DNA of 64,000 nt from Dehalococcoidia bacterium (GCA_965220125.1 CBDCPB010000004.1:1580775-1644774), one strand, 5' to 3'; shown: positions 59-44,432, counted from the stretch's first letter. Notes: generated from the sequence alone by a model not told the origin. Numbers and translations: made by a program.

Positions 59-352
59 GCCGGTCCCACTCCTCGCCTCTGATGTCATCCGCGCCCCCTC
101 GCACGATGCATCAGCCCGCCAATCGGCGGACCCTGGGACTCGAACGCCGGCAGCCCATGCCGCGAGGGCACCCAGCGCCTTCTCCCGCATAGTGCCACAC
201 CGTGTCCAGTCCGCGCAGCGCACCGCCACGATGCCGCCGCCACGCGAACGCCGTCTCTACCCAACCCGCAAGCAAGATCAGGTACCGGGAACGCGCCTCC
301 GGCGAGGCGCTCCAGCGGCGCTTCGCTACGTTGGCGACTCGGCGCGCGCTCA

Positions 353-1495: not shown

Positions 1496-1533
1496 GATTG
1501 CCGGATGTCTGTACCGGGCGCGCGGGATGCTCG

Positions 1534-2595: not shown

Positions 2596-2768
2596 GCTCG
2601 CGCCTCTCTCGTCCTGCGCCGCGCCGCGACGCCCTATCCTGTCCGCATCGTGTGCACGACGGCATAGGGCGCTGTTCAGCACCTCGACGCCGGGCCACAG
2701 GGTAGCCACCGGCGGGCGCGAGCACGAATGCGGCGCCGTCAGGAACCATTCGCACAGATGGAGCAGAC

Positions 2769-3713
2769 GTGAGCACTGGACGGCCAGGGAGCGCGCTCGT
2801 CACCGGATCGTCGGGCTTCGTCGGCGGCCATCTCGTGCGCCGGCTGGCCGCCGACGGCTGGAGCGTCAGCGGCCTCTCGCTCGCGCCGCCCGCCGCAGCG
2901 GGCGAGCCATCGCCGGACGGCGTGAGCGAGCACCTCGCCGACATCCGCGACCTCGAGGCGACGCGCGCAATCGTCGCCGAGGCGCAGCCGGAGGTCGTCT
3001 TCCACCTCGCCGCGCAGGCCTCGGTGCCCGTCTCGATGCGCGACCCGGCGACGGACGTGCTGATCAACGTGCTGGGCAGCGTGCACGTCGCGCAGGCGGC
3101 GGCCGAGGCGGGCGCGCGGCGCATCGTCTTCTTCTCGACCGGCGGGGCGCTTCACGGCGCGCCGCGCTCGCTCTCCGCGAACGAGGACACGCCGATCGCG
3201 CCGGACGCCGTCTACGGCGCCTCGAAGATCGCCGCCGAGCACGAACTCGGGGCGCTCTGCCGCCACCTCGGCCTCGAGCTGTCCGTGCTGCGACCGGGGA
3301 ACATCTACGGGCCGGGGCAGGACGCGGCGGGCGAGTCCGGCGTGGTCGCGATCTTCACCTCGCGCATGCTCGCCGGCGAGCCGGTGACGATCTTCGGCGA
3401 CGGCAGCCAGCAGCGTGACTACGTCTACGTCGACGACGTCGTCGAGGCCGCCCTGCTCGCCGCCGAACGCGAGCCGGCCACCTGCGTCATCGGCACCGGC
3501 GAAGGCACGTCCACGCAGCGCATCTTCGACACGCTCGCGGCGCTCACGGGCTACGGGCAGCCTCCCGTCTACGCCGCGGAGCGCCCCGGCGACCACGCCG
3601 CGATCTACCTCGACCCCTCACGCGCCCGCCAGCTCTGGGGCTGGGCGCCGCGCACCGCCCTCGAGGAGGGGATGGCGCGCACGGTCGAGTGGTTCCGCGA
3701 GGCGTCCGGGTAG
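2769..3713 (+). CDS. NAD-dependent epimerase/dehydratase (UDP-glucose 4-epimerase-like)
   Basis: GSSGFVG, HLAAQ, YGASK, NIYGPGQ, RDYVYVDD. Confidence 0.9.
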   Translation: MSTGRPGSALVTGSSGFVGGHLVRRLAADGWSVSGLSLAPPAAAGEPSPDGVSEHLADIRDLEATRAIVAEAQPEVVFHLAAQASVPVSMRDPATDVLINVLGSVHVAQAAAEAGARRIVFFSTGGALHGAPRSLSANEDTPIAPDAVYGASKIAAEHELGALCRHLGLELSVLRPGNIYGPGQDAAGESGVVAIFTSRMLAGEPVTIFGDGSQQRDYVYVDDVVEAALLAAEREPATCVIGTGEGTSTQRIFDTLAALTGYGQPPVYAAERPGDHAAIYLDPSRARQLWGWAPRTALEEGMARTVEWFREASG

Positions 3714-3761
3714 ATGGCCATGCTCACCGTGGTGCGGACAAGCATCGGGTAGAGTCGCGAG

Positions 3762-4238
3762 ATGCCATCGCCGACGCCCGAGTCCGTCGTGACGTTGCGG
3801 GAGATCACCTCCGGGAACGTCAATGCGATCCTCGCGCTGTCGGTACGCGACTCGCAGAAGCACCTGGTGGCGTCGAACGAGCGCTCCCTCGCGCAGGCGC
3901 ACTTCGAGGAGGCGGCCTGGTTTCGGGCGGTGTACGCCGACGAGGAGCCGGTCGGGTTCGCCCTGCTGCATGACGAGAGCCTGCGCGCCGCGCCGCGCGA
4001 GCGCGGCTACCTCTTCCTGTGGCGGATGATGATCGACCAGCGGTTCCAGGGCATGGGCTTCGGCTGGAGCGCCATGCAGCTCCTCATCGCGCACGCGCGG
4101 ACGCACCCGGAGGCGACGCGGCTGCACACGAGCTGGGATCCCGGCGAGGGAACCGCCGAGGGCTTCTACCTGAAACTCGGGTTCACGGCCACAAGCGTTG
4201 ACGGTGAAGGCGAGATGCACGCGTACCTCGACCTCTGA
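3762..4238 (+). CDS. GNAT N-acetyltransferase (polyamine acetyltransferase-like)
   Basis: MIDQRFQGMGFG acetyl-CoA motif; FYLKLGF. Confidence 0.85.
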   Translation: MPSPTPESVVTLREITSGNVNAILALSVRDSQKHLVASNERSLAQAHFEEAAWFRAVYADEEPVGFALLHDESLRAAPRERGYLFLWRMMIDQRFQGMGFGWSAMQLLIAHARTHPEATRLHTSWDPGEGTAEGFYLKLGFTATSVDGEGEMHAYLDL

Positions 4239-4316
4239 GCGTGAGTGCTGGAGGCGCAGCCCCTGCAGCTCGCGGGTGACGGTTCCGGCGGCAGCGCTGA
4301 GCGGGCGGCGTCCTCG

Positions 4317-5213
4317 CTACTCGTACCAGCCGGAGCCGAACAGCAGGCCGCCGCCGCGGATCGCCCAGGTGTGCTTGGTCTGCTGCTCTCCCGTCGCCGG
4401 GTTGTGGAAGACGTACGTCAGCCAGCGGCCGGTCTCCGAGGTGCTGTTGAGGACATCACCGTAGTAGTAGCCGCTGTCATCGGTCCGCAGCTCACGATTC
4501 TGGATGTGCGTCCCGATCCGCTCCGGACGGGTCGGGTGCGCCACCATCATGCCGTCCTCGTCGAAGATGAAGACGTACCAGGAACCGTCGATGCTCTCCG
4601 GGGAGTTGTAGTAGTCGATCGTCGCCTGCGGCCCCTCCGCCTCAAGGCGGTCGAGCGCCTGCTGGATGACGTACTTCGTGTAGATGTCGGGCTGCACCCT
4701 GGAGGGCACATGGGCGCCCACGCCCGGCGTCACCTCGTACCAGCCGGAGCCGAACAGCAGGCCGTCGCGGCGGACTGCCCAGGAGTGCTTGGTCTCCTCC
4801 TGGTTGCTCTCGGGGTTGCGGTAGACGTAGCTCACCCAGCGCCCGGACTCGCTCGCGGCGACCAGCACCGGTCCGTAGGCGTAGCCGGTGCTGTCGACGC
4901 CCACCTCGCCGACCAGCGACTCCCCGAGGAGCTGCGGCGCCGCCGCGTGCGCGAGGAACAGGTCGTTCTCGTCGAGGATGAAGACGTACCACTGGCCGTC
5001 GATGCTTTCGGGGGAGTTGTAGTAGTCGAGCGTCGCCTGCAACCCGTCGTCCTCGTAGCGGTCGAGGGCCTCCTGGACGAAGTGCTTCGTATGGGCGTCG
5101 GGCTCGTCTTTCGAGGCTCCCCCGCCGCAGCCGATGGAGACGAGCAGGACGAGCAGCGCCGCGGCGATTGCGGCGCCCCGGAACAGCGAAGCCTTGCGCA
5201 ATGGACTGAGCAC
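4317..5213 (-). CDS. Lipoprotein with two tandem single-Cache domains
   Basis: Signal peptide and lipobox (VSIGC); two internal repeats 'YYNSPESIDG.WYVFI.DE...W..YV..NP...KH.WA.R..GLLFGSGWYE'. Confidence 0.8.
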   Translation of the reverse strand: MLSPLRKASLFRGAAIAAALLVLLVSIGCGGGASKDEPDAHTKHFVQEALDRYEDDGLQATLDYYNSPESIDGQWYVFILDENDLFLAHAAAPQLLGESLVGEVGVDSTGYAYGPVLVAASESGRWVSYVYRNPESNQEETKHSWAVRRDGLLFGSGWYEVTPGVGAHVPSRVQPDIYTKYVIQQALDRLEAEGPQATIDYYNSPESIDGSWYVFIFDEDGMMVAHPTRPERIGTHIQNRELRTDDSGYYYGDVLNSTSETGRWLTYVFHNPATGEQQTKHTWAIRGGGLLFGSGWYE

Positions 5214-5290
5214 GGGCCTGGCCCTTCCTCGCGCGTAACGGGAATGTTGCAGTTGCCGGATTCAGTTCCCCGGCGGGTTGCCAGATGCGA

Positions 5291-5312
5291 TCTTATCTCA
5301 GTCTTATCCCAG
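5291..5312 (-). promoter_or_regulatory. 11-bp tandem direct repeat, possible OmpR-type regulator site upstream of the Cache gene
   Basis: TCTTATCTCAG TCTTATCCCAG (one mismatch) in an AT-richer intergenic stretch. Confidence 0.4.
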
Positions 5313-5981
5313 TGTGATCTCACGTACATCCGCGGCTATGGCCAGTTCGACGCCGGTGATCGCTTGGATCTGCTCGACGGTCCAGCCCGGCGCGAACTCG
5401 AGCAGCGTGACGCGGCCGTCCGCGATCTCGAACAGCCCCACGTCCGTCACCACGCGATCGACGCAGCCGAGGGCGGTCAGCACCATGTCGCAGCGCTCGA
5501 CGATCTTCGGATCGCCGTTGGGGGCGGTGTGGTGCATCACCACCAGCACCTGCTTCGCGCAGGTCGCGAGGTCCTGGCCGCCGCCGAGGCCGGGCGCGGG
5601 CTTGCCGGGCACGAGCGCGTTCGCGAGGTTGCCCTGCGCGTCGACCTGCAGCGCGCCCAGCGCGGAGACGTCGATGTGGCCGCCGCGGATCATCGCGAAC
5701 GACTCGTCGTGGCTCATGTAGCAGATGCCCGGCGGGCGCGTGACCGGCTCGCCGCCCGCGTTCATGATCAGCAGGTCGACATCGGCGGGATCTTCGACGC
5801 GTGGACCGAAGCCGAGGACGCCCTGCTCCGAGTGCAGCAGCACCTCGCGGTCCGGCGGGATGCAGTCGGCGATCGCGAGCGGCAGGCCAAGCCCGAGGTT
5901 GACGACCGCGCCGTCCGGCAGATCGCGCGCCGCCAGCAGCGCCATCACGGACTCGTCGAGGCGCTCCGGGGTCTCGCTCAT
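5304..5981 (-). CDS. 3-oxoacid CoA-transferase subunit B
   Basis: VNLGLGLP, HSEQG catalytic Glu, IRGGHID, GGGQDLA. Confidence 0.9.
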   Translation of the reverse strand: MSETPERLDESVMALLAARDLPDGAVVNLGLGLPLAIADCIPPDREVLLHSEQGVLGFGPRVEDPADVDLLIMNAGGEPVTRPPGICYMSHDESFAMIRGGHIDVSALGALQVDAQGNLANALVPGKPAPGLGGGQDLATCAKQVLVVMHHTAPNGDPKIVERCDMVLTALGCVDRVVTDVGLFEIADGRVTLLEFAPGWTVEQIQAITGVELAIAADVREITLG

Positions 5982-6736
5982 GCGGGCGCCCTCCAGTCGT
6001 CGTGCGGCGTCGAGGGCCGCACCACCACGCGCTGCACGTAGACGCCGGGTGTGTGGATCTGGTCCGGGCCGAGGTCACCGAGCGGGACGACCTCGTCGAC
6101 CTCGGCGACGGTGACCTCGGCGGCGCCGGCCATGGTCTCGTTGAAGGTGCGCGGGCCGCGGTAGACGAGGTTGCCGAAGCGGTCGGCGCGGTGCGCGCGG
6201 ATCAGCGCGAAGTCCGCCCGCAGCGCCGTCTCGAGCAGATGCGGAACGCCGTCGAAGTCCCGCACCTCCTTGCCCTCGGCGACGAAGGTGCCCACGCCGA
6301 CGGGCGTGTAGAAGGCGGCGATGCCGGCGCGGGCGCAGCGGATGCGCTCCGCGATCGAGCCCTGGCCCAGCACTTCGACCTCGGCCTCCCCGCGCCACAG
6401 CACGTGCTCGAAGGGGTAGAGCAGCTCGCGCGAGTTGCCGTTGGGGAAGCTGGTGATCAGCTTGCGCAGCCGCCCCAGGCCCGCGATGAGACCGAGATCC
6501 CAGCCGTCGACCGGGAACGGGAGGCCGCGCCGTTCGGTGAGCGCGCGCAGCACCTCCTCACCGTAACCGGCGAAGGTGCTCACGCCGGTCAGTTCGTCCG
6601 CGCCCTGGCGGGCGAGCGCGGCGAAGAGGTAGTTGGGCGTGTTGTGCGGATTCGCGAAGCCACCGAAGTGGACCATCGCGCCGGGCGGCACGTCCGCCAC
6701 GGCCTCGTCGAACGATGCGACGACCTTGTTGATCAT
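5978..6736 (-). CDS. 3-oxoacid CoA-transferase subunit A
   Basis: Start MINKVV; QGSIAERIRC..AGIAAFYTPVG, ADRFGNL, IHTPGVYV; 4-nt overlap with subunit B. Confidence 0.9.
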   Translation of the reverse strand: MINKVVASFDEAVADVPPGAMVHFGGFANPHNTPNYLFAALARQGADELTGVSTFAGYGEEVLRALTERRGLPFPVDGWDLGLIAGLGRLRKLITSFPNGNSRELLYPFEHVLWRGEAEVEVLGQGSIAERIRCARAGIAAFYTPVGVGTFVAEGKEVRDFDGVPHLLETALRADFALIRAHRADRFGNLVYRGPRTFNETMAGAAEVTVAEVDEVVPLGDLGPDQIHTPGVYVQRVVVRPSTPHDDWRAPA

Positions 6737-6902
6737 CTCGCCTCCGCGCGCCGCCGCGGACCGCCCGCGCCCCTGCGAGGATGGTACGTCCGCGGCTGCA
6801 CTGACAACCCCGCTACGGCCGGCGCTGCGGGGCATTCGTACCAGCGGGCTGGATGTGCTAGATTTCCCCGCGCCGACACAAGAGACAACACAAAGGAACG
6901 CC

Positions 6903-7682
6903 ATGACCGATTACACCTTCGTGAAGACCGAGAAAGTCGGTCACATCTTCCGGATGATCCTCAACCGCCCCGAGCGCCTCAACGCGCAGGGCGCGCAGAT
7001 CAGCTGGGACCGCCGCCGTGCCTGGCACGAGGCGATGACCGACCCGGACGTGCGCGTCGTGGTGCTCTCCGGCGAGGGCCGCATCTTCTGCGCGGGCCGC
7101 GACATCCGCGAGCAGGCCGGCGGCGCCCCCGAGATCGTGGGCGCGGGCGAGCCGGTCGCCGACCTCGGCTTCTACAGCGTGCCGGAGACCGACATCCCGC
7201 TGATCACGGCGGTGCAGGGCGGGGCCTGGGGCCTCGGCTTCTACATGGTCTGCGCCTCGGACATTTGCGTCGCCGCCGAAGGCGCGCGCTTCGCGATGTC
7301 GGAGATCCCGACGGGCATCATCGGCCCGGCGCTGTTCCCGATCCTGAACAACCTGCCCTGGCTGCCGGGTTCGGAGATCGTGATTCGCGGTCACCAGTTC
7401 GACGCGCAGCGCGCGTACGAGCTCGGCCTCGCCAACCACGTCGTCCCGGCCGACCAGCTGGAGTCGACGGCGATGGACCTCGCCGAGGAGATCGCGGGCC
7501 TGCCGCCGGTGCACGTGCGCGTGACCAAGCAGCAGTTGATGATGGCGCGACCGCGCCCGAACACCTACCAGAGCGCGATCGGCTTCCCGCAGGCGATGGC
7601 CGGCCTCCGCCAGCTGGACGACACGATGGAGGCCGCGAAGGCCTTCGCCGAGAAGCGGACGCCCGTCTTCAAGGGCCGCTAG
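6903..7682 (+). CDS. Enoyl-CoA hydratase/isomerase family protein
   Basis: LNRPERLNA, FCAGRD, EAAKAFAEKRTPVF; AAGGA RBS before ATG 6903. Confidence 0.88.
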   Translation: MTDYTFVKTEKVGHIFRMILNRPERLNAQGAQISWDRRRAWHEAMTDPDVRVVVLSGEGRIFCAGRDIREQAGGAPEIVGAGEPVADLGFYSVPETDIPLITAVQGGAWGLGFYMVCASDICVAAEGARFAMSEIPTGIIGPALFPILNNLPWLPGSEIVIRGHQFDAQRAYELGLANHVVPADQLESTAMDLAEEIAGLPPVHVRVTKQQLMMARPRPNTYQSAIGFPQAMAGLRQLDDTMEAAKAFAEKRTPVFKGR

Positions 7683-7720
7683 CGCAGTACGCATTCGGGG
7701 CCTCTAGCGAAGGCCGCAAG

Positions 7721-7762
7721 CACAAGAAAACCGGCCACCATCAGGTGGCCGGTTTTCTTGTG
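7721..7762. terminator. Bidirectional intrinsic terminator
   Basis: Perfect 19-bp inverted repeat CACAAGAAAACCGGCCACC-ATCA-GGTGGCCGGTTTTCTTGTG between convergent genes. Confidence 0.85.
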
Positions 7763-7819
7763 TCGGAATGCAGCGCCGCCCGGGCCATACCCGGCTCCGG
7801 CGACGCTGGCTGATGTGGG

Positions 7820-8080
7820 CTAGCTGCCCACGCGCTTCCAGAGCAGCACGCGCTGGTTCTTGTCCTCCCACGTGGAGCGGACACGAATCCCGGTCTCCTT
7901 CGAGGCCTCGGCAAGCAGGCGCTTGATGCGGGAGGCCTTCTCGCCGCGCGACAGCTCGATCGTACCTGCGTTAGAACCCTGCAATGCCTCCGCGTACGTC
8001 TGACGCTCCTGCGCCGACGCACGCTCGCGTCCGATCAGCACCTCGGATGCTTCTTTGGGAGTGAAGATCGCCACGTTCAA
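7820..8080 (-). CDS. Small basic hypothetical protein (86 aa)
   Basis: TTG start with GAAAGG RBS; protein-like composition; terminator downstream. Confidence 0.7.
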   Translation of the reverse strand: MNVAIFTPKEASEVLIGRERASAQERQTYAEALQGSNAGTIELSRGEKASRIKRLLAEASKETGIRVRSTWEDKNQRVLLWKRVGS

Positions 8081-34676: not shown

Positions 34677-36338
34677 GTGATTCGCGAAGAGCTGCGGGAA
34701 CTGGTCGAACGGGCGCTCGTCGCCGCACAGGAGGCGGGCGACCTGCCCGCGTTCGCCGCGCCCGAGGTCACACTCGAACACCCCCAGCGCCCCGAGCACG
34801 GCGACTTCGCCGCCAACCTGCCGCTGCGCATCCAGGGCCTCGCCCGCATGCGCGCGCTCGACGTCGCCGAGGCGCTGCGCGCGCGCATGCCCGTGCACCC
34901 CGCTGTCGGCAAGGTCACCGTCGCCCCGCCCGGCTTCCTCAATCTCTACCTCGACCCCGGCTGGGCCGCCGATCAGGCGCGCGCGATCGCCGAGGCCGGC
35001 GAGGCATGGCCGCAACTCGACCTCGGCGGCGGGAGCAAGACACAGGTCGAGTACGTCTCCGCCAACCCGACCGGGCCGATCCACGTCGGCAACGGGCGCG
35101 GCGCCGCCATCGGCTCCACGCTCGCCGCCGTGCTGCGCGCCACCGGCCACGAGGTGGAGGAGGAGTACTACATCAACGACGCGGGCCAGCAGGTCGCGAT
35201 CTTCGCCCGCACCCTCTACGCCCGCTACCAGCAGCTCTTCGGCCGCGACACCGAGATCCCCGAGAACGGCTACCCCGGCGAGTACGTGCGCGAGATCGCC
35301 GAGCGCATCCAGCGCGACCACGGCGACGCCTTCCTGCGCCCCGAGGGCGAGGAGCCCGACGCCCGCCTCGGCGACGAGGGCATCCGCCTCATGGTCGAGC
35401 AGATCCGCGAGGACCTCGAGGCGATGGGCGTGCGCTACGACCGCTGGTTCGCCGAGCGCTCGCTGCAGGTCGAGGGCGGCCCCTACGACCGCGTGCTCTC
35501 GCTGCTGCGCGAGGAGGGCCACGTCGTCGAGCGCGAGGGCGCGGTCTGGTTCGCCTCCTCGCAGCTCGGCGAGTCGAAGGACAACGTGCTGATCCGCTCG
35601 GACGGGCAGCCGACCTACTTCGCCACGGACATCGCCTACCACTACGACAAGTTCATCGAGCGCGGCTTCGACCGCGTGATCGACGTCTGGGGCGCGGACC
35701 ACCAGGGCCACGTCTCGCGCGTCAAGGCGGGCGTGACGGCGACGGGCGGCGACGGCGACGCGCTCGACGTGCTGCTCTACCAGCTCGTCACGCTCAAGCG
35801 TGACGGGGTGGTGGTGCCGCTCTCCAAACGCGCCGGCGAGATCATCACCCTGCGCGAGGTGGTCGGCGAGGTCGGCCGCGACGCGGCGCGCTTTTTCTTC
35901 CTGCTCTCCTCGGCGGGCTCGGCGATGGACTTCGACCTGGAGCTGGCGAAGCAGCAGTCCGACGAGAACCCCGTCTACTACGTGCAGTACGCACACGCGC
36001 GCATCGCCGGGGTGCTGCACAACGCCGAGGCGCAGGGGCTGTCCGCCGAGGGCGCGCAGCCCTCGCTGCTGACGCACGAGGCGGAGCAGGCGCTGATCCG
36101 CAAGCTGCTGCTGCTGCCCGAGGTGATCGAGGAGGTCGTCGACGAACTCGCGCCGCACCGCCTCCCGCACTACGCGCAGGAGCTGGCGCAGTCGTTCCAC
36201 GTCTTCTACACGCAGTGCCGCGTGCTCGGCGACGACGAGGCGCTGAGCCGCGCGCGCCTCCTGCTCCTCGAGGCCACACGCCTCACCCTCGCGCGCACGC
36301 TCGGCCTGATGGGCATCTCGGCGCCGGAGCGAATGTAG
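34677..36338 (+). CDS. argS: Arginine--tRNA ligase
   Basis: VEYVSANPTGPIHVGNGR (HIGH), WGADHQG, LSKRAG, YYVQYAHAR, C-terminal APERM. Confidence 0.97.
   Translation: MIREELRELVERALVAAQEAGDLPAFAAPEVTLEHPQRPEHGDFAANLPLRIQGLARMRALDVAEALRARMPVHPAVGKVTVAPPGFLNLYLDPGWAADQARAIAEAGEAWPQLDLGGGSKTQVEYVSANPTGPIHVGNGRGAAIGSTLAAVLRATGHEVEEEYYINDAGQQVAIFARTLYARYQQLFGRDTEIPENGYPGEYVREIAERIQRDHGDAFLRPEGEEPDARLGDEGIRLMVEQIREDLEAMGVRYDRWFAERSLQVEGGPYDRVLSLLREEGHVVEREGAVWFASSQLGESKDNVLIRSDGQPTYFATDIAYHYDKFIERGFDRVIDVWGADHQGHVSRVKAGVTATGGDGDALDVLLYQLVTLKRDGVVVPLSKRAGEIITLREVVGEVGRDAARFFFLLSSAGSAMDFDLELAKQQSDENPVYYVQYAHARIAGVLHNAEAQGLSAEGAQPSLLTHEAEQALIRKLLLLPEVIEEVVDELAPHRLPHYAQELAQSFHVFYTQCRVLGDDEALSRARLLLLEATRLTLARTLGLMGISAPERM
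36304..36338 (+). repeat. argS 3' end, directly repeated at 40774-40808
   Basis: 35 bp with one synonymous mismatch (CGA/CGG). Confidence 0.92.
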
Positions 36339-36490
36339 CCCTCCGGGCTGACACCCTTCATCGGCCCGTCTTGCGCGTCCTCGTCGCCTTCTGCGCGGTA
36401 GTTGTCCACAACATATACAAGCCGAAGCCGATTTTCGTCCGTGAGAGCACAGTTTCCGTGCTGGGCTCTCAGAGTAATCGCTTGTTCGCC

Positions 36491-36519
36491 TTGACAAACA
36501 ATGGTGCTCTCTTCAGGAT
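36491..36519 (+). promoter_or_regulatory. Sigma70-type promoter
   Basis: TTGACA-17 nt-CAGGAT upstream of GGAGG RBS and GTG 36540. Confidence 0.55.
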
Positions 36520-36539
36520 CAAGTCTAGTGGAGGTCAGA

Positions 36540-36992
36540 GTGGTCACAGCAGCAGACACGGTGATCGAGTCAATTGAACGGCCAAGCGAACGCATTGAGT
36601 GGTTCGAGGGAAGCGCACGAGGTGCCCGCTCGTTCCCAACTTGCTCCGTCACGAGGTCAGGATCCATGACCTTGAACGACGTGGCAGTGCGCGAACTTGG
36701 CAGTCCCCCTGCAGTGGCACTTGGATACGACGCGCAAGGGATGCAAATCGCACTGCGCGCATGTCTGAGTACCGGCGCTGGGGCGATGCAGCTCAAGCCA
36801 TCGCGAACAGCGGAAGGTCAGGCGACGGGCAGTTGTTCCATATTCGCCCGGAGCTTCCTGAGCTATCACGGCATTGAGCCAGCGGAGAACAATGTCTTCC
36901 GACTGGAGGAGATCGGCGATGGTGTGTACGTGCTGTCGCTGGACGGGCCGTTGCCGAAGGGCAGACCCGCTCGCCGCGAGGCAGGCCCGTAG
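36540..36992 (+). CDS. Hypothetical protein (lower GC, accessory)
   Basis: GGAGG RBS, own promoter and downstream hairpin; beta-rich 'LGSPPAVALGYD...IALR' pattern. Confidence 0.7.
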   Translation: MVTAADTVIESIERPSERIEWFEGSARGARSFPTCSVTRSGSMTLNDVAVRELGSPPAVALGYDAQGMQIALRACLSTGAGAMQLKPSRTAEGQATGSCSIFARSFLSYHGIEPAENNVFRLEEIGDGVYVLSLDGPLPKGRPARREAGP

Positions 36993-37021
36993 CATTTGGG
37001 CCTACAGGATGGCCAAACACA

Positions 37022-37051
37022 GGAAGGGGGCTGAGTAACCAGCCCCCTTCC
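37022..37051. terminator. Hairpin, probable terminator
   Basis: GGAAGGGGGCTG-AGTAAC-CAGCCCCCTTCC perfect 12-bp stem. Confidence 0.55.
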
Positions 37052-37318
37052 GGCAGAAACGGAGGCGCCAGCGACCCCTGGATTCGGAGAGGCCAGCGCA
37101 TGCACCGCATCAACGTGGCGCATGATGGCCAAGTGTTTGGCGGTGGTCAAATCTCCGAGTGACGGTCGACCGGGGCGAGGCGTCGCAGTCAAGGGATCGA
37201 TTCGTGAGATCACTCCAGACTGTCAATCGCCAGGGTCTATGGACCACCCGTCGCCACAGTCATTAGACCACCCGGGCAGCCGGTAGGGCGGCTTGGTATC
37301 AGTGAGCAGTACGTCTCG

Positions 37319-38092
37319 TCAATCAGCTCCTTCCTGGGCGTCGAGCAGGGCGCGGTGCGGTGAGAGTCGCTGGCGGTAGCTCTCGCCCTCGATCACGATC
37401 TGGTAGCTGGCGTTGGCGAGCCGGTCGAGTGCGCTGTTGCCGAGGATCGGGTCGTCGAAGAGGCCGAGCCACTCCTCGACCGCGCGGTTCGAGGTGATGA
37501 CGAAGCTGGAGCTGCGGTGGCGCCCGATAATCAGCTCGTAGAGGTCGATCGACTGCTGCGCGCTGAGCCGGTGCAGCCCGAGGTCGTCGAGGATCAGCAG
37601 GTCGGGGGCGAGGAAGGCGCGGAACGTCTTCTCGGTGGAGTGGTCGACCCTTGCCTGCGCCAGCTCGCGGAAGTACTGGTCGGCGGTCACGAAGCGCACG
37701 CTGCGCCCCGAGCGGACGGCGGCGTAGCCGAGCGCCTGGGCGAGGAAGCTCTTGCCGACGCCGACGGGGCCGACGAGCAGGACGTGCTCGCGGCGGTCGA
37801 GGAAGCGCAGCGAGCAGGCGGCGTCGAGCAGCCTGCGGTCGAGCCGGATGCCGGCCGACCAGTCGAAGTCCTCGAGCCTGCAGAGCTGCTCGAAGCCGGC
37901 CTGGCGCAGGCGCAGTTCGAGGCGCCCATGGTCGCGGCGGCTCACCTCGTCGGCGAGGACGATCTGCAGGAAGTCGGCGTAGTCGAGCCCGTCGCGGCGG
38001 GCGAGGGCGATGCGCTCGGGCAGGGTGTCGAGCATCGGGCCGAGCTTGAGGCGCTTGAGCAGCGGGCGCAGCTCGGCGGTCGTGGCGGTCAT
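37319..38092 (-). CDS. istB: IS21 helper ATPase
   Basis: GPVGVGKS Walker A, LLILDDLG Walker B, ITSN, SALDRL, GESYR. Confidence 0.95.
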   Translation of the reverse strand: MTATTAELRPLLKRLKLGPMLDTLPERIALARRDGLDYADFLQIVLADEVSRRDHGRLELRLRQAGFEQLCRLEDFDWSAGIRLDRRLLDAACSLRFLDRREHVLLVGPVGVGKSFLAQALGYAAVRSGRSVRFVTADQYFRELAQARVDHSTEKTFRAFLAPDLLILDDLGLHRLSAQQSIDLYELIIGRHRSSSFVITSNRAVEEWLGLFDDPILGNSALDRLANASYQIVIEGESYRQRLSPHRALLDAQEGAD

Positions 38093-39669
38093 CGTGACGC
38101 TCCTGTCGTGGTCTGCGTGGCGGTCAGTGCGAAGACGGCGCCGGGGCGGGCGAAGCGGCCCGGCGGCGGGGGCAGCGGCTGCTGGGGCGGCGTGGTCTCC
38201 TGCTCGAGGGCCTCGACGAGGATGCGCTCGAGGCGGCGCACGTCGATCAGGTCGACCTCGAGCGCGCGGCGGCAGGCGGCGTCGAGGCGGGCGGGGGAGT
38301 AGCGCTCGGCGAGCCTGAGCAGCTTGTGGCCCTGCCGCAGCTTGGCCCAGGGCAGCGGCCCCTCGAAGAGCCGCTCGGCGAAGGCGCCGGTGGCCTCGCC
38401 GAGTTCGGCCGCGCGCCGCTGCAGCTGCTCGGGCGCGCGCAGCGTGTAGGGGCTGAGCTCGGCCGGGTAGTCGTTGCGGTCGGTGGCGCGTCCGCCGCGG
38501 GGCTGGCGCGGGTGGACCTTGAGCAGCGCGCCGCGGTGGTAGATGCGCACCAGCTTCGCGCCGAGCTGCACCTCGACCTGCTGCCCCGGCGGGCAGAGCG
38601 CCGACGGCACCGAGTAGAGCGCGTATTGGCAGGCGACGTGGTGGTCGGCATGGACCTTCGCCGTGCGCCAGTCGGGGACCTCGTAGGGCTCCCCGTCCCA
38701 GGGGGCGAGCAGCGGGCGCTCCTCCTGCTCGAAGACCTCGAGCGGCCGCCTGCGGGTCGTCCCGTGGATGCGTTGCCCCGCCACCTCGAGCGACCAGCGC
38801 CGGGCGGCGTCGCGCAGCTCGGCGAGGTCGCGAAACTGCGCGCCCTTGAAGAGGCGCTCGCGCACGTACGGGACGCTGCGCTCGACCCGAGGCTTGTCGC
38901 GAGGCTTGCGCACGCGCGCGGGGTCGCTGATGAAGCCACGCTGGCGGGCGTACTCGAGGAAGCCCCGCGTGAAGCGCGGGTGCAGCGCGTCGGCCCCGGC
39001 CACGGCGGCCGGGAAGTTGTCGATCACGAGGTAGCGGGGCACGCCCTCGAAGCACGCCCAGGCCGCCTCCAGGCCCTCGACCACCGCGTGCAGCGTCTGG
39101 CTGGTGGTGGGCCAGACGAAGCAGTGCCGCGAGTAGCGCCAGACCACGATCAGCGCCCAGACCGTGCGGCGCCGCCCGCTCTCGGGGTCCGCGATGAGGC
39201 CGAGCCGGCCGAAGTCCAGCTCCGCGACCTCGCCCGGCGGCCCATCCTCCATGCGCACGGTCAGAGGCTGCCGGCGACCCCAGCCGCGGCGGGCGATGAA
39301 GCGCCGCAGCGTGCTGTAGGAGACCTCGCAGCCGCGCTCGGCGAGCAGTTCATGGATCCGCGTGACCTGCAGGCGCTCGGCCTGCAGCCAGCGCTCGATC
39401 TGCTCCGCCCAGGGCGAGAGCAGCTGCTCGCTCGGTACCTCCGCGCGGCGCGGGCCGGTGCGGCTCAGCGTCGCCAGCCGGGCGAGTTGCTGCTCACTCG
39501 GCTCGGGGCCACCTGGCTGGAGCCCGGCCGCCTCGGCCGCCGCGATGTAGCGCCGCACCGTCACGCGCGACAGCCCCGTGCCGCTGGCGATGCGACGCTG
39601 GCTGAATCCCGCCTGCCAGCGGCGGATGACTTCCCTGATCTCCACTCGATGCACCTCCCGGTAGGCCAT
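38089..39669 (-). CDS. istA: IS21 transposase
   Basis: N-terminal HTH, PGEVAELDFG, IDN, PRDKPRVER, RIHGTT; ATGA overlap with istB. Confidence 0.95.
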   Translation of the reverse strand: MAYREVHRVEIREVIRRWQAGFSQRRIASGTGLSRVTVRRYIAAAEAAGLQPGGPEPSEQQLARLATLSRTGPRRAEVPSEQLLSPWAEQIERWLQAERLQVTRIHELLAERGCEVSYSTLRRFIARRGWGRRQPLTVRMEDGPPGEVAELDFGRLGLIADPESGRRRTVWALIVVWRYSRHCFVWPTTSQTLHAVVEGLEAAWACFEGVPRYLVIDNFPAAVAGADALHPRFTRGFLEYARQRGFISDPARVRKPRDKPRVERSVPYVRERLFKGAQFRDLAELRDAARRWSLEVAGQRIHGTTRRRPLEVFEQEERPLLAPWDGEPYEVPDWRTAKVHADHHVACQYALYSVPSALCPPGQQVEVQLGAKLVRIYHRGALLKVHPRQPRGGRATDRNDYPAELSPYTLRAPEQLQRRAAELGEATGAFAERLFEGPLPWAKLRQGHKLLRLAERYSPARLDAACRRALEVDLIDVRRLERILVEALEQETTPPQQPLPPPPGRFARPGAVFALTATQTTTGASR

Positions 39670-40044
39670 CGCTGCTCCCTCCCCTGGGGATGCAGCCGAT
39701 GGTGGCCCTACCGGCGACCGGGTGGTCAAAAGACCCTGGCGGGGGTGGATCAATGATCCTGGCGAAGTGGATCAATGACCCTGGCGATCTCGCCGTTTTC
39801 CGGTCTATAGATCCTGGTGATTCACAAAGACACGGACCATCCGCATCCCCATCAGGGTTACGGTGAAAGCACGCACATCCGTCCGCACAACGCGGACGGC
39901 GAGGGTGCTCCAGCGGCGCACTGTCGTGCGGAGGCGGATCAAGCCGTAGCAGGTAGCTCGGTAGCCAGCCGACCATTCGCTGGTGGGCTGGCTACCGACC
40001 ACCACCGGAGGACATCGCGAACCGGCCCTTGGGAGACTCTGGCC

Positions 40045-40242
40045 ATGGCTGAACGGGATACCTATCGGTATCACTACATCAAGAGCAGGACAATCGTTCA
40101 CCGGGGCATCACGAACGACCTCGGACGTCGAGAGCAGGAGCATCACCAGAACTACGGTGACGGCTCGATAAAGCAGATCGGCCCCAAGGTCACGCGTGAT
40201 TCCGCTCTCAACTGGGAGCGGGACGGCGGGAAGCGAATCTAG
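40045..40242 (+). CDS. Minimal GIY-YIG-like protein (65 aa)
   Basis: TYRY...VHRGITNDL.RREQEH...ALNWE matches the GIY-YIG core; GGGAG RBS. Confidence 0.7.
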   Translation: MAERDTYRYHYIKSRTIVHRGITNDLGRREQEHHQNYGDGSIKQIGPKVTRDSALNWERDGGKRI

Positions 40243-40254
40243 GCTGTCGCCTAC

Positions 40255-40283
40255 GAGGCGGGGGCGGCGTCCGCCCCCGCCTC
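40255..40283. terminator. GC hairpin between convergent genes
   Basis: GAGGCGGGGGCGG-CGT-CCGCCCCCGCCTC. Confidence 0.5.
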
Positions 40284-40335
40284 CCGCTCCCGTCCTTGGA
40301 CGTGGCGAGGAGGCAATAGCCAGCGCGGGGCCACG

Positions 40336-40808
<473 letters not shown>

Positions 40809-40823
40809 GGGCGCGCCGCTCCG

Positions 40824-41147
40824 ATGCCGGGCGAGGAAACCGAACCACCCCTCTACGAGATCCGGCTCCGCCGCCGGGACCGGGCGGAACTCCGATCGTG
40901 GAACGAACGTGAGAGGGAAGTGACTCTCGCGTTCCTGCGAGACTACGCGAGCCGCACGCCGACTGCTCCGATTCCCGGCAGGCTCAAGCAGCTCAATGCG
41001 CCGTTCGAGGACCACTACCAACTGCGCGTGAGCCGACGCCGCAGGCTCATCTATCGCGTGGATGAGGAACGCAGGAGGGTGCGAGTCGTCTACCTCGGCC
41101 CGCACCCGGATTGGCGGCAGAGCCGACCCGGGAGCATCACTCGGTGA
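40824..41147 (+). CDS. RelE/ParE-superfamily toxin-like protein
   Basis: Basic 107 aa; LKQL....YQLRV...RRLIYRVDE..RRVRVVYLGPH. Confidence 0.78.
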   Translation: MPGEETEPPLYEIRLRRRDRAELRSWNEREREVTLAFLRDYASRTPTAPIPGRLKQLNAPFEDHYQLRVSRRRRLIYRVDEERRRVRVVYLGPHPDWRQSRPGSITR

Positions 41148-41439
41148 ACTCAGACAGCGGCGCGTACTCGCGCTCGTCGATGGGCCGCGTGAGCGCCGCG
41201 ATCATCTCGGGGGAAGACATGACCTCGGCCGTCGCTTCCCAGCTCTCGATCACCCGGCACAGCGGGCGATCGTCGCCGGTGATCAACGCGGTCTTGAGCG
41301 TGTCGGAAAGCTCGACTGCGAAGAGGCGCAGTTGCAGCGGGTTGAGATCGGCGACCCACCACAGGGCCTCCGGCAGTTCCTCCTCGCGGAAGTACTGGAT
41401 CGCCGCTTCCCGCAGTTGCTCCGGCGCCTCGGCAACCAT
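41137..41439 (-). CDS. Antitoxin-like protein (DUF6247-like)
   Basis: Acidic 100 aa resembling the 'W...L...F..EL...W..TAEV..PE' antitoxin C-terminal domain; convergent with the toxin gene with an 11-nt overlap. Confidence 0.7.
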   Translation of the reverse strand: MVAEAPEQLREAAIQYFREEELPEALWWVADLNPLQLRLFAVELSDTLKTALITGDDRPLCRVIESWEATAEVMSSPEMIAALTRPIDEREYAPLSEFTE

Positions 41440-41573
41440 GATTCGCCCTCCGGCGCGCGGCGGCGGCCCGCGGCCCCATCGCCACTCGCACGCCCTCGCA
41501 GCAGTCTAGCATCTCCACCCTCGCCCGCCGGCCCCACTCGCGGTACCTTCTGCGTGAGCACGGGAGGGGCATC

Positions 41574-42209
41574 ATGGCGACGAACAACTCGGGTGCGCCC
41601 GCGCCGGGCGCACACCGGCAGTACGAGATCCTGATCGCCCTTGTCGATGCCGGCCTGGATATTGAACGGCGCGTGGTGATCCCGGACCAGACCACGCTCG
41701 CCGACCTCCATCTAGTCATCCAGGCCGCCATGGGCTGGACCAACTCGCACCTGCATGCGTTCACCACGCCCGATGGAGTCACGTACGGTGACTCCAGCCT
41801 CGATGAGCTTGGCTATGCCGACGAGTCCGATGTGGTCGTGGCGGACGTCCTGCGCGCGCCCCGCGACACGCTCCGCTACGAGTACGATTTCGGTGACTCC
41901 TGGGAACACCATATCGAGCTCATGGCGGTCCGGACCGGCGAGCAATCGCGACCGGACACGCCTGCCTGCATCGCCGGACGCGGCGCGTGTCCGCCGGAAG
42001 ATTGCGGAGGCGTCTACGGTTACGACGAGTTGCGTGAGGCGCTGACCAACCCTTCCTCGGAGCACGACGCGGAACTGAGGGAGTGGGCCGAAGAGTTCAT
42101 CGACCTCCCGCTCGACGTGGACGCCTTCGATCTCGCCGCGGCGGATGCCGCGGTGCGCAGCCTCGTCGGAGACGACGGCCGCATGCACTGGCCCGATCCC
42201 GGCATGTAG
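41574..42209 (+). CDS. Plasmid pRiA4b ORF-3 family protein
   Basis: TLADLHLVIQAAMGW.NSHLH.F, YEYDFGDSWEH, CPPEDCGG..GY. Confidence 0.9.
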   Translation: MATNNSGAPAPGAHRQYEILIALVDAGLDIERRVVIPDQTTLADLHLVIQAAMGWTNSHLHAFTTPDGVTYGDSSLDELGYADESDVVVADVLRAPRDTLRYEYDFGDSWEHHIELMAVRTGEQSRPDTPACIAGRGACPPEDCGGVYGYDELREALTNPSSEHDAELREWAEEFIDLPLDVDAFDLAAADAAVRSLVGDDGRMHWPDPGM

Positions 42210-42383
42210 GTCCGCGCCTCGCGATCACGGGCGCCGGCGAGAGGACCGGCGTTCACCGGCTAGCCGGCGCCCGGCAGCGATCGGCAGCTGCGGCGCACCA
42301 CCACCCACCCCCTCCCTCGCCCCCCTCCCCCACTCGCGATACCCTCGACGGCACGAGGCGCAACGACACCGCGAGGCGAGGCG

Positions 42384-43457
42384 ATGAGCGAGGCGGACGG
42401 CGAGCGGCGGCGGATTCTGACCGGGGTGCGGCCCACCGGGGCGCTGCACCTTGGGCACTACGCGGGCGCGCTCGAGAACTGGCTCCGCCTCCAGGATGAG
42501 TACGAGTGCTTCTTCCTCATCGCCGACTACCAGGTCTCCGACCACGCCGACGACATCGATCGCGTCCGCTCGGCCGTGCTCGAGGTCGCCACCGACTGGC
42601 TCGCCGTCGGGCTCGACCCGGAGCGCTCGCACTTCGTGATCGAGAGCATGGTGCCGGAGCACGCCGAGCTGACGACCCTGCTCAGCTGGTTCATCGGCCT
42701 CGGACGGCTCGAACGCAACCCCACGCTCAAGGCCGAGATGGACGAGCTCGAGGAGCGCGGGATGTCGTTCGAGGACACCGAGCGCACGGGCAAGCGGCAG
42801 GTGGTGCGCGAGCGCGGCGCGGTGCCCGTCGCCTTCTTCACCTACCCGATCATGCAGGTCGCCAACATCCTGATGCCGCGCGCGCACCTGGTGCCAACCG
42901 GCGGGGACCAGCTGCCGCACATCGAGATGACGCGCGAGGTCGCACGCCGCTTCAACCGCCGCTTCGGCGAGGTCTTCCCCGAGCCCGACGGCCTCGTCGG
43001 CCGCGTCCCGCGCCTCGCCGGCACCGACGGCAACGCGAAGATGAGCAAGTCGCTCGGCAACACGATCGATCTCAAGGACGACGCCGAGACGGTCGAGCGC
43101 AAGGTGATGCGCATGTACACGGACCCGACGCGGCTGCGCGCCACCGACCCCGGCCACGTCGAGGGCAACCCGGTGTTCATGTACCACGACGCCTTCAACC
43201 CGGACACGGCGGAGGTCGACGACCTCAAGGAGCGCTACCGCGAGGGGCGCGTCGGCGACGTGGAGGTGAAGCGCACGCTGGCGGCCGCGCTCAACGCCTT
43301 CCTCGACCCGATCCGTGAGCGGCGCGCGTATTACGAGGCGAACCCGCGCGAGGTGCGCGCGGCGCTCGCGCGCGGCACGGAGCACGCCCGCGGCGTCGCG
43401 CAGGCGACGATGGTGGACGTGCGCTCCGCGCTGGGCCTCAACTACCTCGACGACTGA
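42384..43457 (+). CDS. trpS: Tryptophan--tRNA ligase
   Basis: [13 protein letters not shown] (HIGH), YPIMQVANI, GDQLPHIE, KMSKSLGN. Confidence 0.97.
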   Translation: MSEADGERRRILTGVRPTGALHLGHYAGALENWLRLQDEYECFFLIADYQVSDHADDIDRVRSAVLEVATDWLAVGLDPERSHFVIESMVPEHAELTTLLSWFIGLGRLERNPTLKAEMDELEERGMSFEDTERTGKRQVVRERGAVPVAFFTYPIMQVANILMPRAHLVPTGGDQLPHIEMTREVARRFNRRFGEVFPEPDGLVGRVPRLAGTDGNAKMSKSLGNTIDLKDDAETVERKVMRMYTDPTRLRATDPGHVEGNPVFMYHDAFNPDTAEVDDLKERYREGRVGDVEVKRTLAAALNAFLDPIRERRAYYEANPREVRAALARGTEHARGVAQATMVDVRSALGLNYLDD

Positions 43458-43466
43458 CGCCGGGCG

Positions 43467-44432
43467 CTACTCGCCGTCGCCATCCTGGGGCGGCAGCGAG
43501 CGAAGGAACGCCTCGATCTGGTCGAGGCGGGCGTCGAGTTCGGCGCCGGCGAAGTGCGCTCGCGGATCGTAGGGACCGATGGCGGCCGTGGCTGCGGCCT
43601 CACCCAGCGGGGGGAAGAACTCGGCGAACTCGGCGGGGCCTGCGTGCATGTGGATGCCGCCTCGTTCGGGCTTGGCGAGCATCAGGTAGCGATTGCGTTT
43701 CGAGGGTGGCGCAATCATCACAGCGAGCTTGTACGGGCGCACTGCGAGCCCGGCTTCCCGCGACATCTCAAGGAAGCGGTCGAACTCCACCGCGACACCA
43801 GCGTCGCGAGCGCGCTGGCGGATGGTGTCAACACTATGCCCCGGTCCCCTTGCCTGACGTTCAGTCTGTTCCTCCGTTACCTCGCGGATCAGGAGACGCG
43901 GGCCGCCACCATGGAGCTCGAACACCTCGAAGCTGACGATGGTGATTGGCACGCCGTACGTCCCACCGAGGTGCGCAACGATCCGCTCCAGCCCTGCGTC
44001 GACGCCGACGCCAGCGAGAAGGACAGCCACCTCACGTGGCCCGTCCTCGCCCGCCAGTTGTCGATGCACGGTGCTCGCCAACTCCTCCGCGTCGCCGAGC
44101 GGCGCGAGGCCGGGGCGCAGCAGTGCTTCGAGATCCTCGGAGGCCATCTGCGCGATTGACGATGCGTAGTCGAGTGCCTGAGTGATCGCGTCGCGGTACA
44201 GCCGCTCGCGCTTGAGCTCGATCACCACCCAGCGGTCCTGCCAGTCGATCGCGAGGAGATCGAGCGGCCCACCATCGAGCCAGACCTGGCGGCCTACAAC
44301 CGTGAGTCCGTCTGCGAGCAGCGAGGCGTCGACCGCGATCCAGTCCTCGAGGTTCTTCTCGAGGTCGACGCCGGAACGACCCACGCGCCGTGGCGCATCG
44401 CCGTCCACCGTCCAGACGCCCAGATCAGCCAT
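43467..44432 (-). CDS. NucS/DUF91-type PD-(D/E)xK endonuclease domain protein
   Basis: EKNLEDWI, VGRQV, LDLLAID, VVIELKR, QALDYA. Confidence 0.82.
   Translation of the reverse strand: MADLGVWTVDGDAPRRVGRSGVDLEKNLEDWIAVDASLLADGLTVVGRQVWLDGGPLDLLAIDWQDRWVVIELKRERLYRDAITQALDYASSIAQMASEDLEALLRPGLAPLGDAEELASTVHRQLAGEDGPREVAVLLAGVGVDAGLERIVAHLGGTYGVPITIVSFEVFELHGGGPRLLIREVTEEQTERQARGPGHSVDTIRQRARDAGVAVEFDRFLEMSREAGLAVRPYKLAVMIAPPSKRNRYLMLAKPERGGIHMHAGPAEFAEFFPPLGEAAATAAIGPYDPRAHFAGAELDARLDQIEAFLRSLPPQDGDGE

Follow-up and report, generated by a model that had tools for sequence, protein, structure and literature searches.

Most hotspots of horizontal gene transfer lack integrases, and gene addition at them, as opposed to swapping, is mostly inferred. 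Several described systems bear on how such additions might come about. In experiments with Escherichia coli, spontaneous tandem duplications at 3-12 bp of microhomology bring a silent gene under the control of a neighbouring promoter (PMC6614815; PMC11111574). Integrase-free hotspots between core genes diversify by double homologous recombination, according to the sections of Oliveira et al. (2017, PMC5635113) that deal with them. A further type is the orphan array of Rhs, contact-dependent inhibition (CDI) and type VI secretion system (T6SS) effector-immunity modules, outlined in Kirchberger et al. (2017, PMC5361080). The locus presented here is the spacer between argS and trpS in a 64,000-nucleotide (nt) stretch of DNA from a Dehalococcoidia bacterium (genome G000); this whole stretch is the window, and all coordinates are positions in it. 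The spacer holds two units of mostly small genes, separated by a scar in which the 5′ end of trpS is fused to the 3′ end of argS. It is fairly likely, in our judgement, that this arrangement goes back to one microhomology-mediated, head-to-tail join of two spacers, followed by homologous recombination, gene conversion and the insertion of an IS21-family element.

Two core genes on the plus strand bound the locus: argS (arginyl-tRNA synthetase, 34677..36338; Pfam DALR_1 1e-34, with tRNA-synt_1d and Arg_tRNA_synt_N) on the left and an intact trpS (tryptophanyl-tRNA synthetase, 42384..43457; Pfam tRNA-synt_1b 5e-62) on the right. Between them lie unit 1 (an unnamed gene that we call hyp, the IS21 element, a GIY-YIG-like gene and a DUF6247-like gene, AT1), a stub, and unit 2 (a RelE-like gene, a second DUF6247-like gene, AT2, and a PRiA4_ORF3-family gene). 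The stub was delimited with a repeat search and pairwise alignments. Positions 40592-40777 duplicate 42305-42490, with 167 of 187 aligned columns identical (BLAST E 1e-64). This trpS-derived copy of about 186 nt, on the plus strand, consists of 79 nt from upstream of the gene (40592..40670: an element with a C-rich 37-45-nt motif and a TAnnnT-like box, then the leader, corresponding to 42305..42383 before the resident trpS) and trpS′, the first 107 coding nucleotides (40671..40777). It runs into ′argS (40774..40808, plus strand), which matches the last 35 nt of argS, stop codon included (36304-36338), at 34 of 35 positions. The two copies overlap in GCCT (40774-40777), the microhomology at the breakpoint, which sits in a wider, imperfect 9-nt match, GCTC[C/G]GCCT (8/9 nt). 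The join is head to tail and links trpS nt 107 to argS nt -35, both in the same orientation.

The original prediction, made from the sequence alone, had described a tandem two-unit array with this gene order and a trpS′/′argS junction, and the repeat search, alignments and Pfam matches bear this out. Its GCCT junction and its 35-bp argS anchor are likewise found, while the trpS-side copy is about 186 nt rather than the proposed 177 bp. The synonymous differences it listed are all present (ATC/ATT, GCC/GCG and CTC/CTT in trpS′, CGA/CGG in ′argS). In all, seven codons differ between trpS′ and the resident trpS, namely these three, three non-synonymous ones (codons 2, 5 and 6) and the breakpoint codon. 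The leader diverges far more than the coding part between stub and resident copy (58/79 ungapped). In G000 the fusion is an open frame of 45 codons, and the 45-amino-acid open reading frame (ORF) matches Pfam tRNA-synt_1b at 1.6e-6. A relative, G012, carries a 1-nt deletion at the breakpoint, which indicates that the fusion peptide itself is not conserved.

G000 is a metagenome-assembled genome of 3.9 Mb in 4 contigs, with the window on a 3.1-Mb contig, and the sequencing runs that contain the stretch are mainly sponge and coral metagenomes. We compared it with its genus, 19 species genomes with G000 counted, and also checked five further genera of the family. The scar breakpoint is identical in 4 of the 19 genomes (G000, G004, G012 and G013), which are independent assemblies with the scar on contigs of 1.3-3.6 Mb. 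A 76-nt probe over the scar matches G004 at 100%, G012 at 98.7% with one gap, and G013 at 97.3% over 74 nt. In G015 a trpS 5′ stub abuts remnants of the RelE-like gene, with about 70 nt gone that would include the ′argS piece; this stub is probably a deletion derivative of the scar, although an independent event is possible. A translated search found no extra trpS 5′ fragment in the remaining 14 genomes of the genus. Logan unitigs from four runs over 36000-42800 stop at the repeat boundaries (in run X1, for example, one ends at 40777 and one starts at 40774); no listed piece spans the scar and none conflicts with it, and they are uninformative on excision. Two unitig joins, 37217 to 39832 in run X2 and 41294 to 42308 in run X21, fit relatives that are free of the insertion sequence (IS) and relatives without PRiA4, respectively. 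An exact 26-mer and a 22-mer over the scar had 0 matches in metagenome contigs, these strings being unable to match the G012 and G013 variants. Among genome contigs the exact scar string is found in G004 only, as G012 and G013 differ at the breakpoint base.

The spacer as a whole is strongly variable. Both argS and trpS lie on one contig in 19/19 genomes of the genus (argS is inverted in G006), and the distance between them ranges from 0.68 kb (G003) to 6.0 kb (G000). Gene sets vary in a mostly collinear order of Fic/DOC, hyp, the pair of RelE-like and DUF6247-like genes, and PRiA4_ORF3. In other genera the gap is 0-35 nt (G022, G023 and G024) or about 370 nt (G019), and the two genes are unlinked only in G020. 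On this comparison the spacer is a genus-specific, integrase-free accessory hotspot, apparently opened within a formerly tight gene pair. The original prediction had proposed comparing the interval across relatives; it is not invariant, and the same junction accompanies differing cargo in G004, G012 and G013. Its statement that there is no integrase also agrees with our scans. Integrase and resolvase families are absent from the Pfam-scanned ORFs at 20-56 kb, where the IS21 transposase is the sole recombinase, and Pfam scans of these ORFs together with 31 spacer ORFs from relatives reveal no prophage, conjugative element or integrase. There are no tRNA genes at 25-55 kb of the window, and Rfam (E<=1, 33-45 kb) gives no match, hence no T-box or other known leader.

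The comparison also yielded two observations on single relatives. The spacer of G017 (L037 1314-2759) holds a 481-amino-acid frame with an N6_N4 DNA methylase domain (Pfam 1e-47) and a weak Mrr_cat-like C-terminal part, which could be a fused modification-restriction gene. In G010 (C5:1463108-1464767) the argS match falls into two pieces that lie in different frames and share residues 213-214; either a frameshift or an assembly error affects this essential gene.

In keeping with the alternative cargo sets of the original prediction, both units have counterparts among relatives, where the spacer allele in question stands by itself. G011 has a spacer that is collinear over its full length with 40769-42895 (87.9% over 2129 nt), from the argS interior through the RelE-like gene, AT2 and PRiA4 to trpS, which means that unit 2 with its ′argS piece is an entire spacer allele existing on its own. 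In G010 the argS end is joined to the RelE-like gene as in unit 2. Unit 1 resembles the single hyp-containing spacers of other species, and the three scar-bearing relatives have three different versions of it: hyp, the GIY-YIG-like gene and AT1 in G012, as in G000; Fic and hyp (69% identity) in G013; and Fic, a truncated RelE-like copy, a DUF6247-like gene and PRiA4 in G004. The G004 version is close to the single spacer of G017 (Fic 91.9%, DUF6247-like gene 96.4%, PRiA4 94.1%), and these two genomes look like a before/after pair. The truncated second RelE-like copy of G004 is 97% identical to the unit-2 gene, which favours a true duplication, and its unit-1 PRiA4 is 97% identical to the unit-2 PRiA4 of G000. 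In G000, G012 and G013 the two units are unlike. The pattern of identities between units is compatible with duplication and later replacement, or with the addition of a foreign unit.

Exchange between species is visible when unit 2 is set against the core genes. The argS and trpS sequences split the genus into three clades, of which clade I comprises G000, G004, G012, G013 and G017 at 95-98% identity. We compared differences in unit 2 (631 nt) with a core background of argS plus trpS (2619 nt, two genes) using a Fisher test. G000 and G004 differ at 3/631 positions in unit 2 and at 98/2619 (3.7%) in the core (p 1.2e-6); for G004 and G012 the counts are 9/631 and 111/2619 (p 3.6e-4), and for G004 and G013 12/631 and 106/2619 (p 8.7e-3). 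The other three pairs, at 12-15/631 and 62-81/2619, are not significant. From the low divergence of unit 2 in the G004 pairs it follows that the scar and unit 2 entered the G004 lineage, or passed out of it, once the species had separated. Sequence has also been exchanged between the repeat copies. A GACGGC variant is common to the resident copy of G000 and the stub of G004, both G013 copies have a leader of type 2 and both G004 copies one of type 1, the G004 stub combines a resident-type leader with codons of the G000-stub type, and the G015 stub carries bases specific to G015. Judged by these patterns, the copies are mosaic and patchily homogenised. The original prediction had taken one unit to come from a diverged relative on the strength of the synonymous differences. 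Between-species exchange holds for unit 2 of G004; synonymous divergence by itself does not show foreign origin, since the scar dates back at least to the separation of the four species and its copies have been homogenised in patches.

The C-rich motif of the stub occurs three times in the whole 3.9-Mb genome, and all copies are at this locus, at 40592, 41509 and 42305. The copy at 41509..41554 (plus strand) stands directly before PRiA4_ORF3 and retains 30/37 core positions; a copy precedes PRiA4 in 8/8 genomes that bear this gene. Behind this copy, G012 and G004 still have a clade II/III-type leader, which is short, and some 63 nt of decayed trpS codons that no longer include the start codon; the remaining PRiA4-bearing genomes have kept the motif and deleted the decayed codons. 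The pseudo-codons next to it decayed and the motif did not, which suggests that it is under selection as a signal for expression. The leader of the scar stub is of a long type found only in clade I. Set against the short, ancestral-type leader at PRiA4, this would place the PRiA4 event first and the trpS′/′argS join later. In G011 the distance from argS to the start of the RelE-like gene is about 10 nt; in the array the gene begins 15 nt past the stop of the stub, behind the trpS upstream copy. That plus-strand cargo obtains transcription and translation starts from the stubs is probably why they persist.

A further event at the locus is the insertion of the IS21-family element (37221..39827, minus strand), with istA at 38089-39753 and istB at 37319-38125 (Pfam IstB_IS21 6e-55, rve and Mu-transpos_C_2). 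It has the tandem istA/istB arrangement, imperfect terminal inverted repeats and a 4-nt target-site duplication, AGAC, expected of this family. G012 has a precise empty site that matches the G000 insertion, with AGAC duplicated in G000, and the IS-free join 37217 to 39832 is the one seen in run X2. From these comparisons the element is a late insertion, in G000 only. In runs X19, X21 and X2 its word depth is about 200-8000, compared with about 10-40 for unique sequence on either side, so these samples contain multiple copies of the element or of close relatives.

Taken together, we propose the following history. An early duplication would have placed the trpS upstream element and first codons before PRiA4_ORF3. 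In a clade-I-like ancestor with a spacer of the G011 type (argS, RelE-like gene, DUF6247-like gene, PRiA4, trpS), illegitimate recombination at GCTC[C/G]GCCT would then have linked trpS nt 107 to argS nt -35, either as a tandem duplication or, formally equivalent, by excision and re-insertion. This would have put a second trpS upstream element and the 45-codon stub before the RelE-like gene. Comparison of the species shows that homologous recombination, with argS, the 187-nt stub and trpS as arms, later swapped unit 1 among species, that the scar and unit 2 were carried between species, and that the repeat copies were homogenised in patches. Finally, IS21 inserted in G000. The scar-bearing block can be regarded as an insertion at trpS nt 107, with the 187-nt stub as its left arm and the trpS body as its right arm. 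With such arms an ordinary double crossover could move the block into the spacer of any relative, and together with argS they would also permit swapping of unit 1.

Several points weigh against this history. The two units of G000 are unlike, so duplication in place needs a later replacement of unit 1, and the addition of a foreign spacer needs none. The G000 stub has two bases typical of clade II (in ATGGGC and ATC). The core background of the recombination test consists of two genes only, and sliding-window identity over full-length argS and trpS against 18 relatives reveals no clear imported tract in the flanks. G017, which lies inside or next to clade I, is without the scar, which requires either that it was lost there or that it spread horizontally. 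In G014 and G016 a RelE-like gene comes after hyp with no scar, a pattern that the proposed history leaves unexplained. A scan with sigma-70 and terminator consensus sequences did not flag the motif, whose promoter role is putative.

The original prediction went further and saw in the conserved gene ends a landing-pad system that stacks cassettes. This was overstated, as one breakpoint covers all of the junction-bearing genomes, and an integrase-free hotspot flanked by core genes has already been described in the relevant part of PMC5635113; an active cassette-stacking system is not supported. A bolder reading than the proposed history, which we regard as tentative and rather doubtful, is that the stub acts as a portable kit of homology arms and an expression start, by which small toxin- or defence-like genes have recurrently been stacked and spread without an integrase. 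The two 5′ stubs here, a 3′ trpS stub in G016 and G014, and an array beginning with a moaE end keep this alive. The G016 stub comes from the opposite end of trpS and in another clade: a 137-nt direct repeat (97.8%; L049, about 3744-3880 and 4164-4300), made up of the last 92 nt of trpS and 44 nt downstream, flanks an insert of about 283 nt just past the gene, and a related insert is present in G014 (L022). The other array is in G000 itself, about 61.5 kb beyond the window end (C4:1706304-1708207), where DUF1640-like small genes are repeated in tandem and the repeat unit begins inside the last 130 or so nt of the moaD/moaE-like gene that precedes the array; it is the second tandem duplication with a stub in G000. 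A self-comparison of G000 for local direct repeats gave 246 pairs, which are unsorted and mostly repeat-protein or paralogue arrays.

Among the alternatives to our proposed history, the one that survives best is the original prediction's own mechanism: the spacer of a diverged relative was excised at GCCT as a circle and inserted by a single Campbell-type crossover in the trpS 5′ region, after which repeated insertion into different spacers and loop-out would be possible. The structure is the exact Campbell product, A-X-A-Y, and G016 and G014 have something similar, A-X-A, at the 3′ end of trpS. As a spacer allele, unit 2 is complete and of foreign type, it stands nearly identical beside differing versions of unit 1, and the stubs of G004 and G015 are chimeric or of recipient type. 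The unlike units of G000 and the two clade-II-type bases of its stub also favour the addition of a foreign unit. Single crossovers with gene-end circles in E. coli, in the experiments that PMC3240628 describes, gave end duplications of 109-950 bp in 56/60 clones. However, neither a circle nor an allele with one unit was seen in the unitigs, which break at the repeats. A circle that lacks an integrase and does not replicate is not known to have any route from cell to cell, and the spread is accounted for equally well by a linear fragment that has the stub and trpS as arms. The stub leader is of the long clade-I type and not that of a distant relative. Furthermore, the longest uninterrupted identity between the repeat copies of G000 is 38 nt, so loop-out should now be inefficient. 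A circle is a possible step, and as a full account of the locus we think it unlikely; an intrachromosomal, microhomology-mediated tandem duplication gives the same structure, and sequence cannot separate the two.

Homology-facilitated illegitimate recombination of a linear donor, a route proposed for orphan immunity-gene and Rhs arrays, is a considerably weaker candidate. The donor would have been anchored by homology in trpS (or argS), with its other end joined illegitimately at GCCT. Microhomology at the join, one-sided homology and stacked, displaced modules resemble the model for T6SS arrays in Vibrio, as set out in part of PMC5361080. Against this, the illegitimate end must join inside the segment paired with the anchor without loss of recipient DNA, which we infer to be geometrically awkward, and no foreign tract reaches into argS or trpS. 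Such events are orders of magnitude rarer than homologous recombination in the account given in PMC5361080, and far rarer than single-crossover duplications in the E. coli conjugation experiments covered in PMC3240628. We regard this route as quite improbable.

More improbable still is site-specific recombination, with the C-rich motif as an attachment site at which an unlinked recombinase inserts cassettes before trpS in the manner of an integron. It would account for the direct repetition of the 37-45-nt motif, each of whose three copies opens a block, and for the toxin- or defence-like cargo. Yet the breakpoint lies 107 nt inside trpS, away from the motif, and the copies run on into leader and coding sequence as ordinary duplications do. 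The genome has no further copy of the motif, in which no inverted-repeat core was noticed, and there is no integrase within 20-56 kb and no tRNA gene nearby. Lastly, the co-assembly in tandem of two strains with different spacers, for which one may cite the metagenomic origin of G000, its estimated contamination of 2.7% and the presence of related strains in the same runs, has a negligible probability, as assemblers join at long overlaps and not at a 4-nt microhomology inside two genes, and as the identical breakpoint in three other species' assemblies rules against the two-strain chimera that the original prediction had named as its refutation.

The cargo genes deserve a closer look. The PRiA4_ORF3-family gene of unit 2 (41574..42209, plus strand; Pfam PF07929 8e-52) has orthologues in G004, G009, G011, G012, G013, G015 and G017. 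Its name and that of the IS21 element in the original prediction are upheld by Pfam; the labels RelE-like, antitoxin-like and mini GIY-YIG remain provisional, on matches that are weak. The RelE/ParE/YoeB-like gene (40824..41147, plus strand, 107 amino acids), which starts 15 nt past the ′argS stop, is assigned by its homologues, a family profile and collinearity. The protein in the window has no match in Pfam, NCBIfam or PADLOC. Homologues in G016 and G014 match ParE_toxin (4e-4) and YoeB_toxin (7e-5), both below the cut-offs, and the family profile matches YoeB 7v6w in the PDB at E 1.5e-3. There is no upstream antitoxin ORF, as the gene directly follows argS or the stub. Its DUF6247-like partner is on the opposite strand, and not in the same operon like the antitoxin of a type II pair. 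This partner, AT2 (41137..41439, minus strand), is convergent with the RelE-like gene, overlaps it by 11 nt and is recognised by coding-type G+C content at third codon positions and by alignment.

In unit 1 the corresponding places are taken by a 65-amino-acid GIY-YIG-like mini protein (40045..40242, plus strand) and, convergent with it, AT1 (40336..40566, minus strand), whose Pfam DUF6247 match (E 2.6e-3) is under the curated cut-off. The mini protein is named by Atlas feature similarity (0.97 to 'putative GIY-YIG' clusters of 64-67 amino acids and 0.91 to Tox-URI2, with no Pfam match), and at 96% nucleotide identity it is present in G012 only. AT1 and AT2 are paralogues (55% amino-acid and 69% nucleotide identity), and their alignment has a conserved WEATAE block. 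A DUF6247-like profile finds nothing in the PDB under E 0.1, and the literature searched yielded no mention of DUF6247. The two units share a layout in which a small plus-strand toxin-like gene, GIY-YIG-like or RelE-like, converges with a minus-strand DUF6247-like gene. The gene arrangement suggests that the DUF6247-like proteins are one partner family with exchangeable toxins. In G013, unit 1 (L036 2002-2442) has a different ORF of 146 amino acids where G000 has the 65-amino-acid gene; it has no Pfam match, and by eye a GIY-YIG-like stretch, 'YVW...LYAGEADSL..R', can be made out.

The commonest spacer gene across the genus is hyp (36501..36992, plus strand, about 150 amino acids), with homology to relatives from about 36591. 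Homologues at 67-71% nucleotide identity are found in G003, G005, G007, G008, G013, G014, G015, G016 and G018, and one at 96.7% in G012. The protein has no match in Pfam, NCBIfam, PADLOC or Atlas, and Foldseek returned none at E<=0.001. The core of an AlphaFold2 (AF2) model has a predicted local distance difference test score (pLDDT) of about 80, and its best VIA-align matches, MraZ at Z 6.1 (root-mean-square deviation 8.6) and B3 domains at Z 4.1, are below the tool's own caution line; an MraZ/B3 pseudobarrel-like fold is a lead only. A GC-rich hairpin with a 13-bp stem lies 30 nt past the hyp stop (37022..37051); seen in a consensus scan only and scored on the minus strand, it is a possible terminator. 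On the far side of trpS, directly 3′ of it in a patch of lower GC, is a gene at 43467-44432 (minus strand) that encodes a nuclease domain resembling NucS_C (Pfam 1e-7) and matches PDC-S11 of PADLOC (2e-32), a candidate defence nuclease.

What makes the locus useful is that it keeps the physical scar of one gene addition, alongside related species that show its later fate: replacement of a unit, transfer between species, gene conversion, IS insertion and partial deletion. Its value is that of a clean, datable example in an uncultured lineage; it is no new machine and not a new kind of element. If the portable-kit idea were true, gene-end stubs would be a recurrent route of gene addition in sponge-associated Dehalococcoidia, whatever the recipient's spacer holds.

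Among the known systems, integrons and integrase-borne genomic islands differ most plainly. No intI integrase was found here, and what is repeated is plain duplicated sequence from the coding part of trpS and the region before it; likewise there is no recombinase of an island, and the repeats are 187 nt long at 89% identity, not short exact attachment sites. The Campbell insertions described in PMC3240628 are similar in that a direct gene-end duplication of 100-950 bp flanks the insert and the gene stays intact, but those in that account were made with laboratory plasmids, and a natural circle is not seen here. In the orphan arrays, as portrayed in the sections of PMC5361080 noted above, modules stack beside a conserved gene and leave a gene fragment per event without an integrase, and whole arrays spread by homologous recombination, all of which is familiar from this locus. 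The arrays described there, however, extend from the variable 3′ end of a gene for a polymorphic toxin and keep the immunity genes. Here the conserved gene encodes an essential tRNA synthetase, the duplicated parts are its upstream element and 5′ end, and the cargo is something other than a C-terminal toxin domain. With the integrase-free hotspots of PMC5635113 the spacer shares variable content between two core genes, the lack of an integrase or tRNA gene, defence- or toxin-type cargo and exchange between species. It differs in having opened inside a gene pair that is tight in sister genera, and in containing an internal scar, made from stubs of both core genes and usable as a homology arm.

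The likeness to tandem duplication with promoter capture is in the join itself, head to tail at a short microhomology (3-12 bp there, 4/4 or 8/9 nt here), by which the promoter region and 5′ end of a downstream gene are put before a gene that previously had none of its own. That said, the event at this locus is ancient, it is fixed in several species and its units are no longer alike, the promoter role is putative, and a second, older event of the same kind stands before PRiA4. The scar is likely a natural counterpart of the laboratory promoter captures, and the locus is a clear natural example that combines features of an integrase-free hotspot, of microhomology duplication with promoter capture and of displacement arrays.

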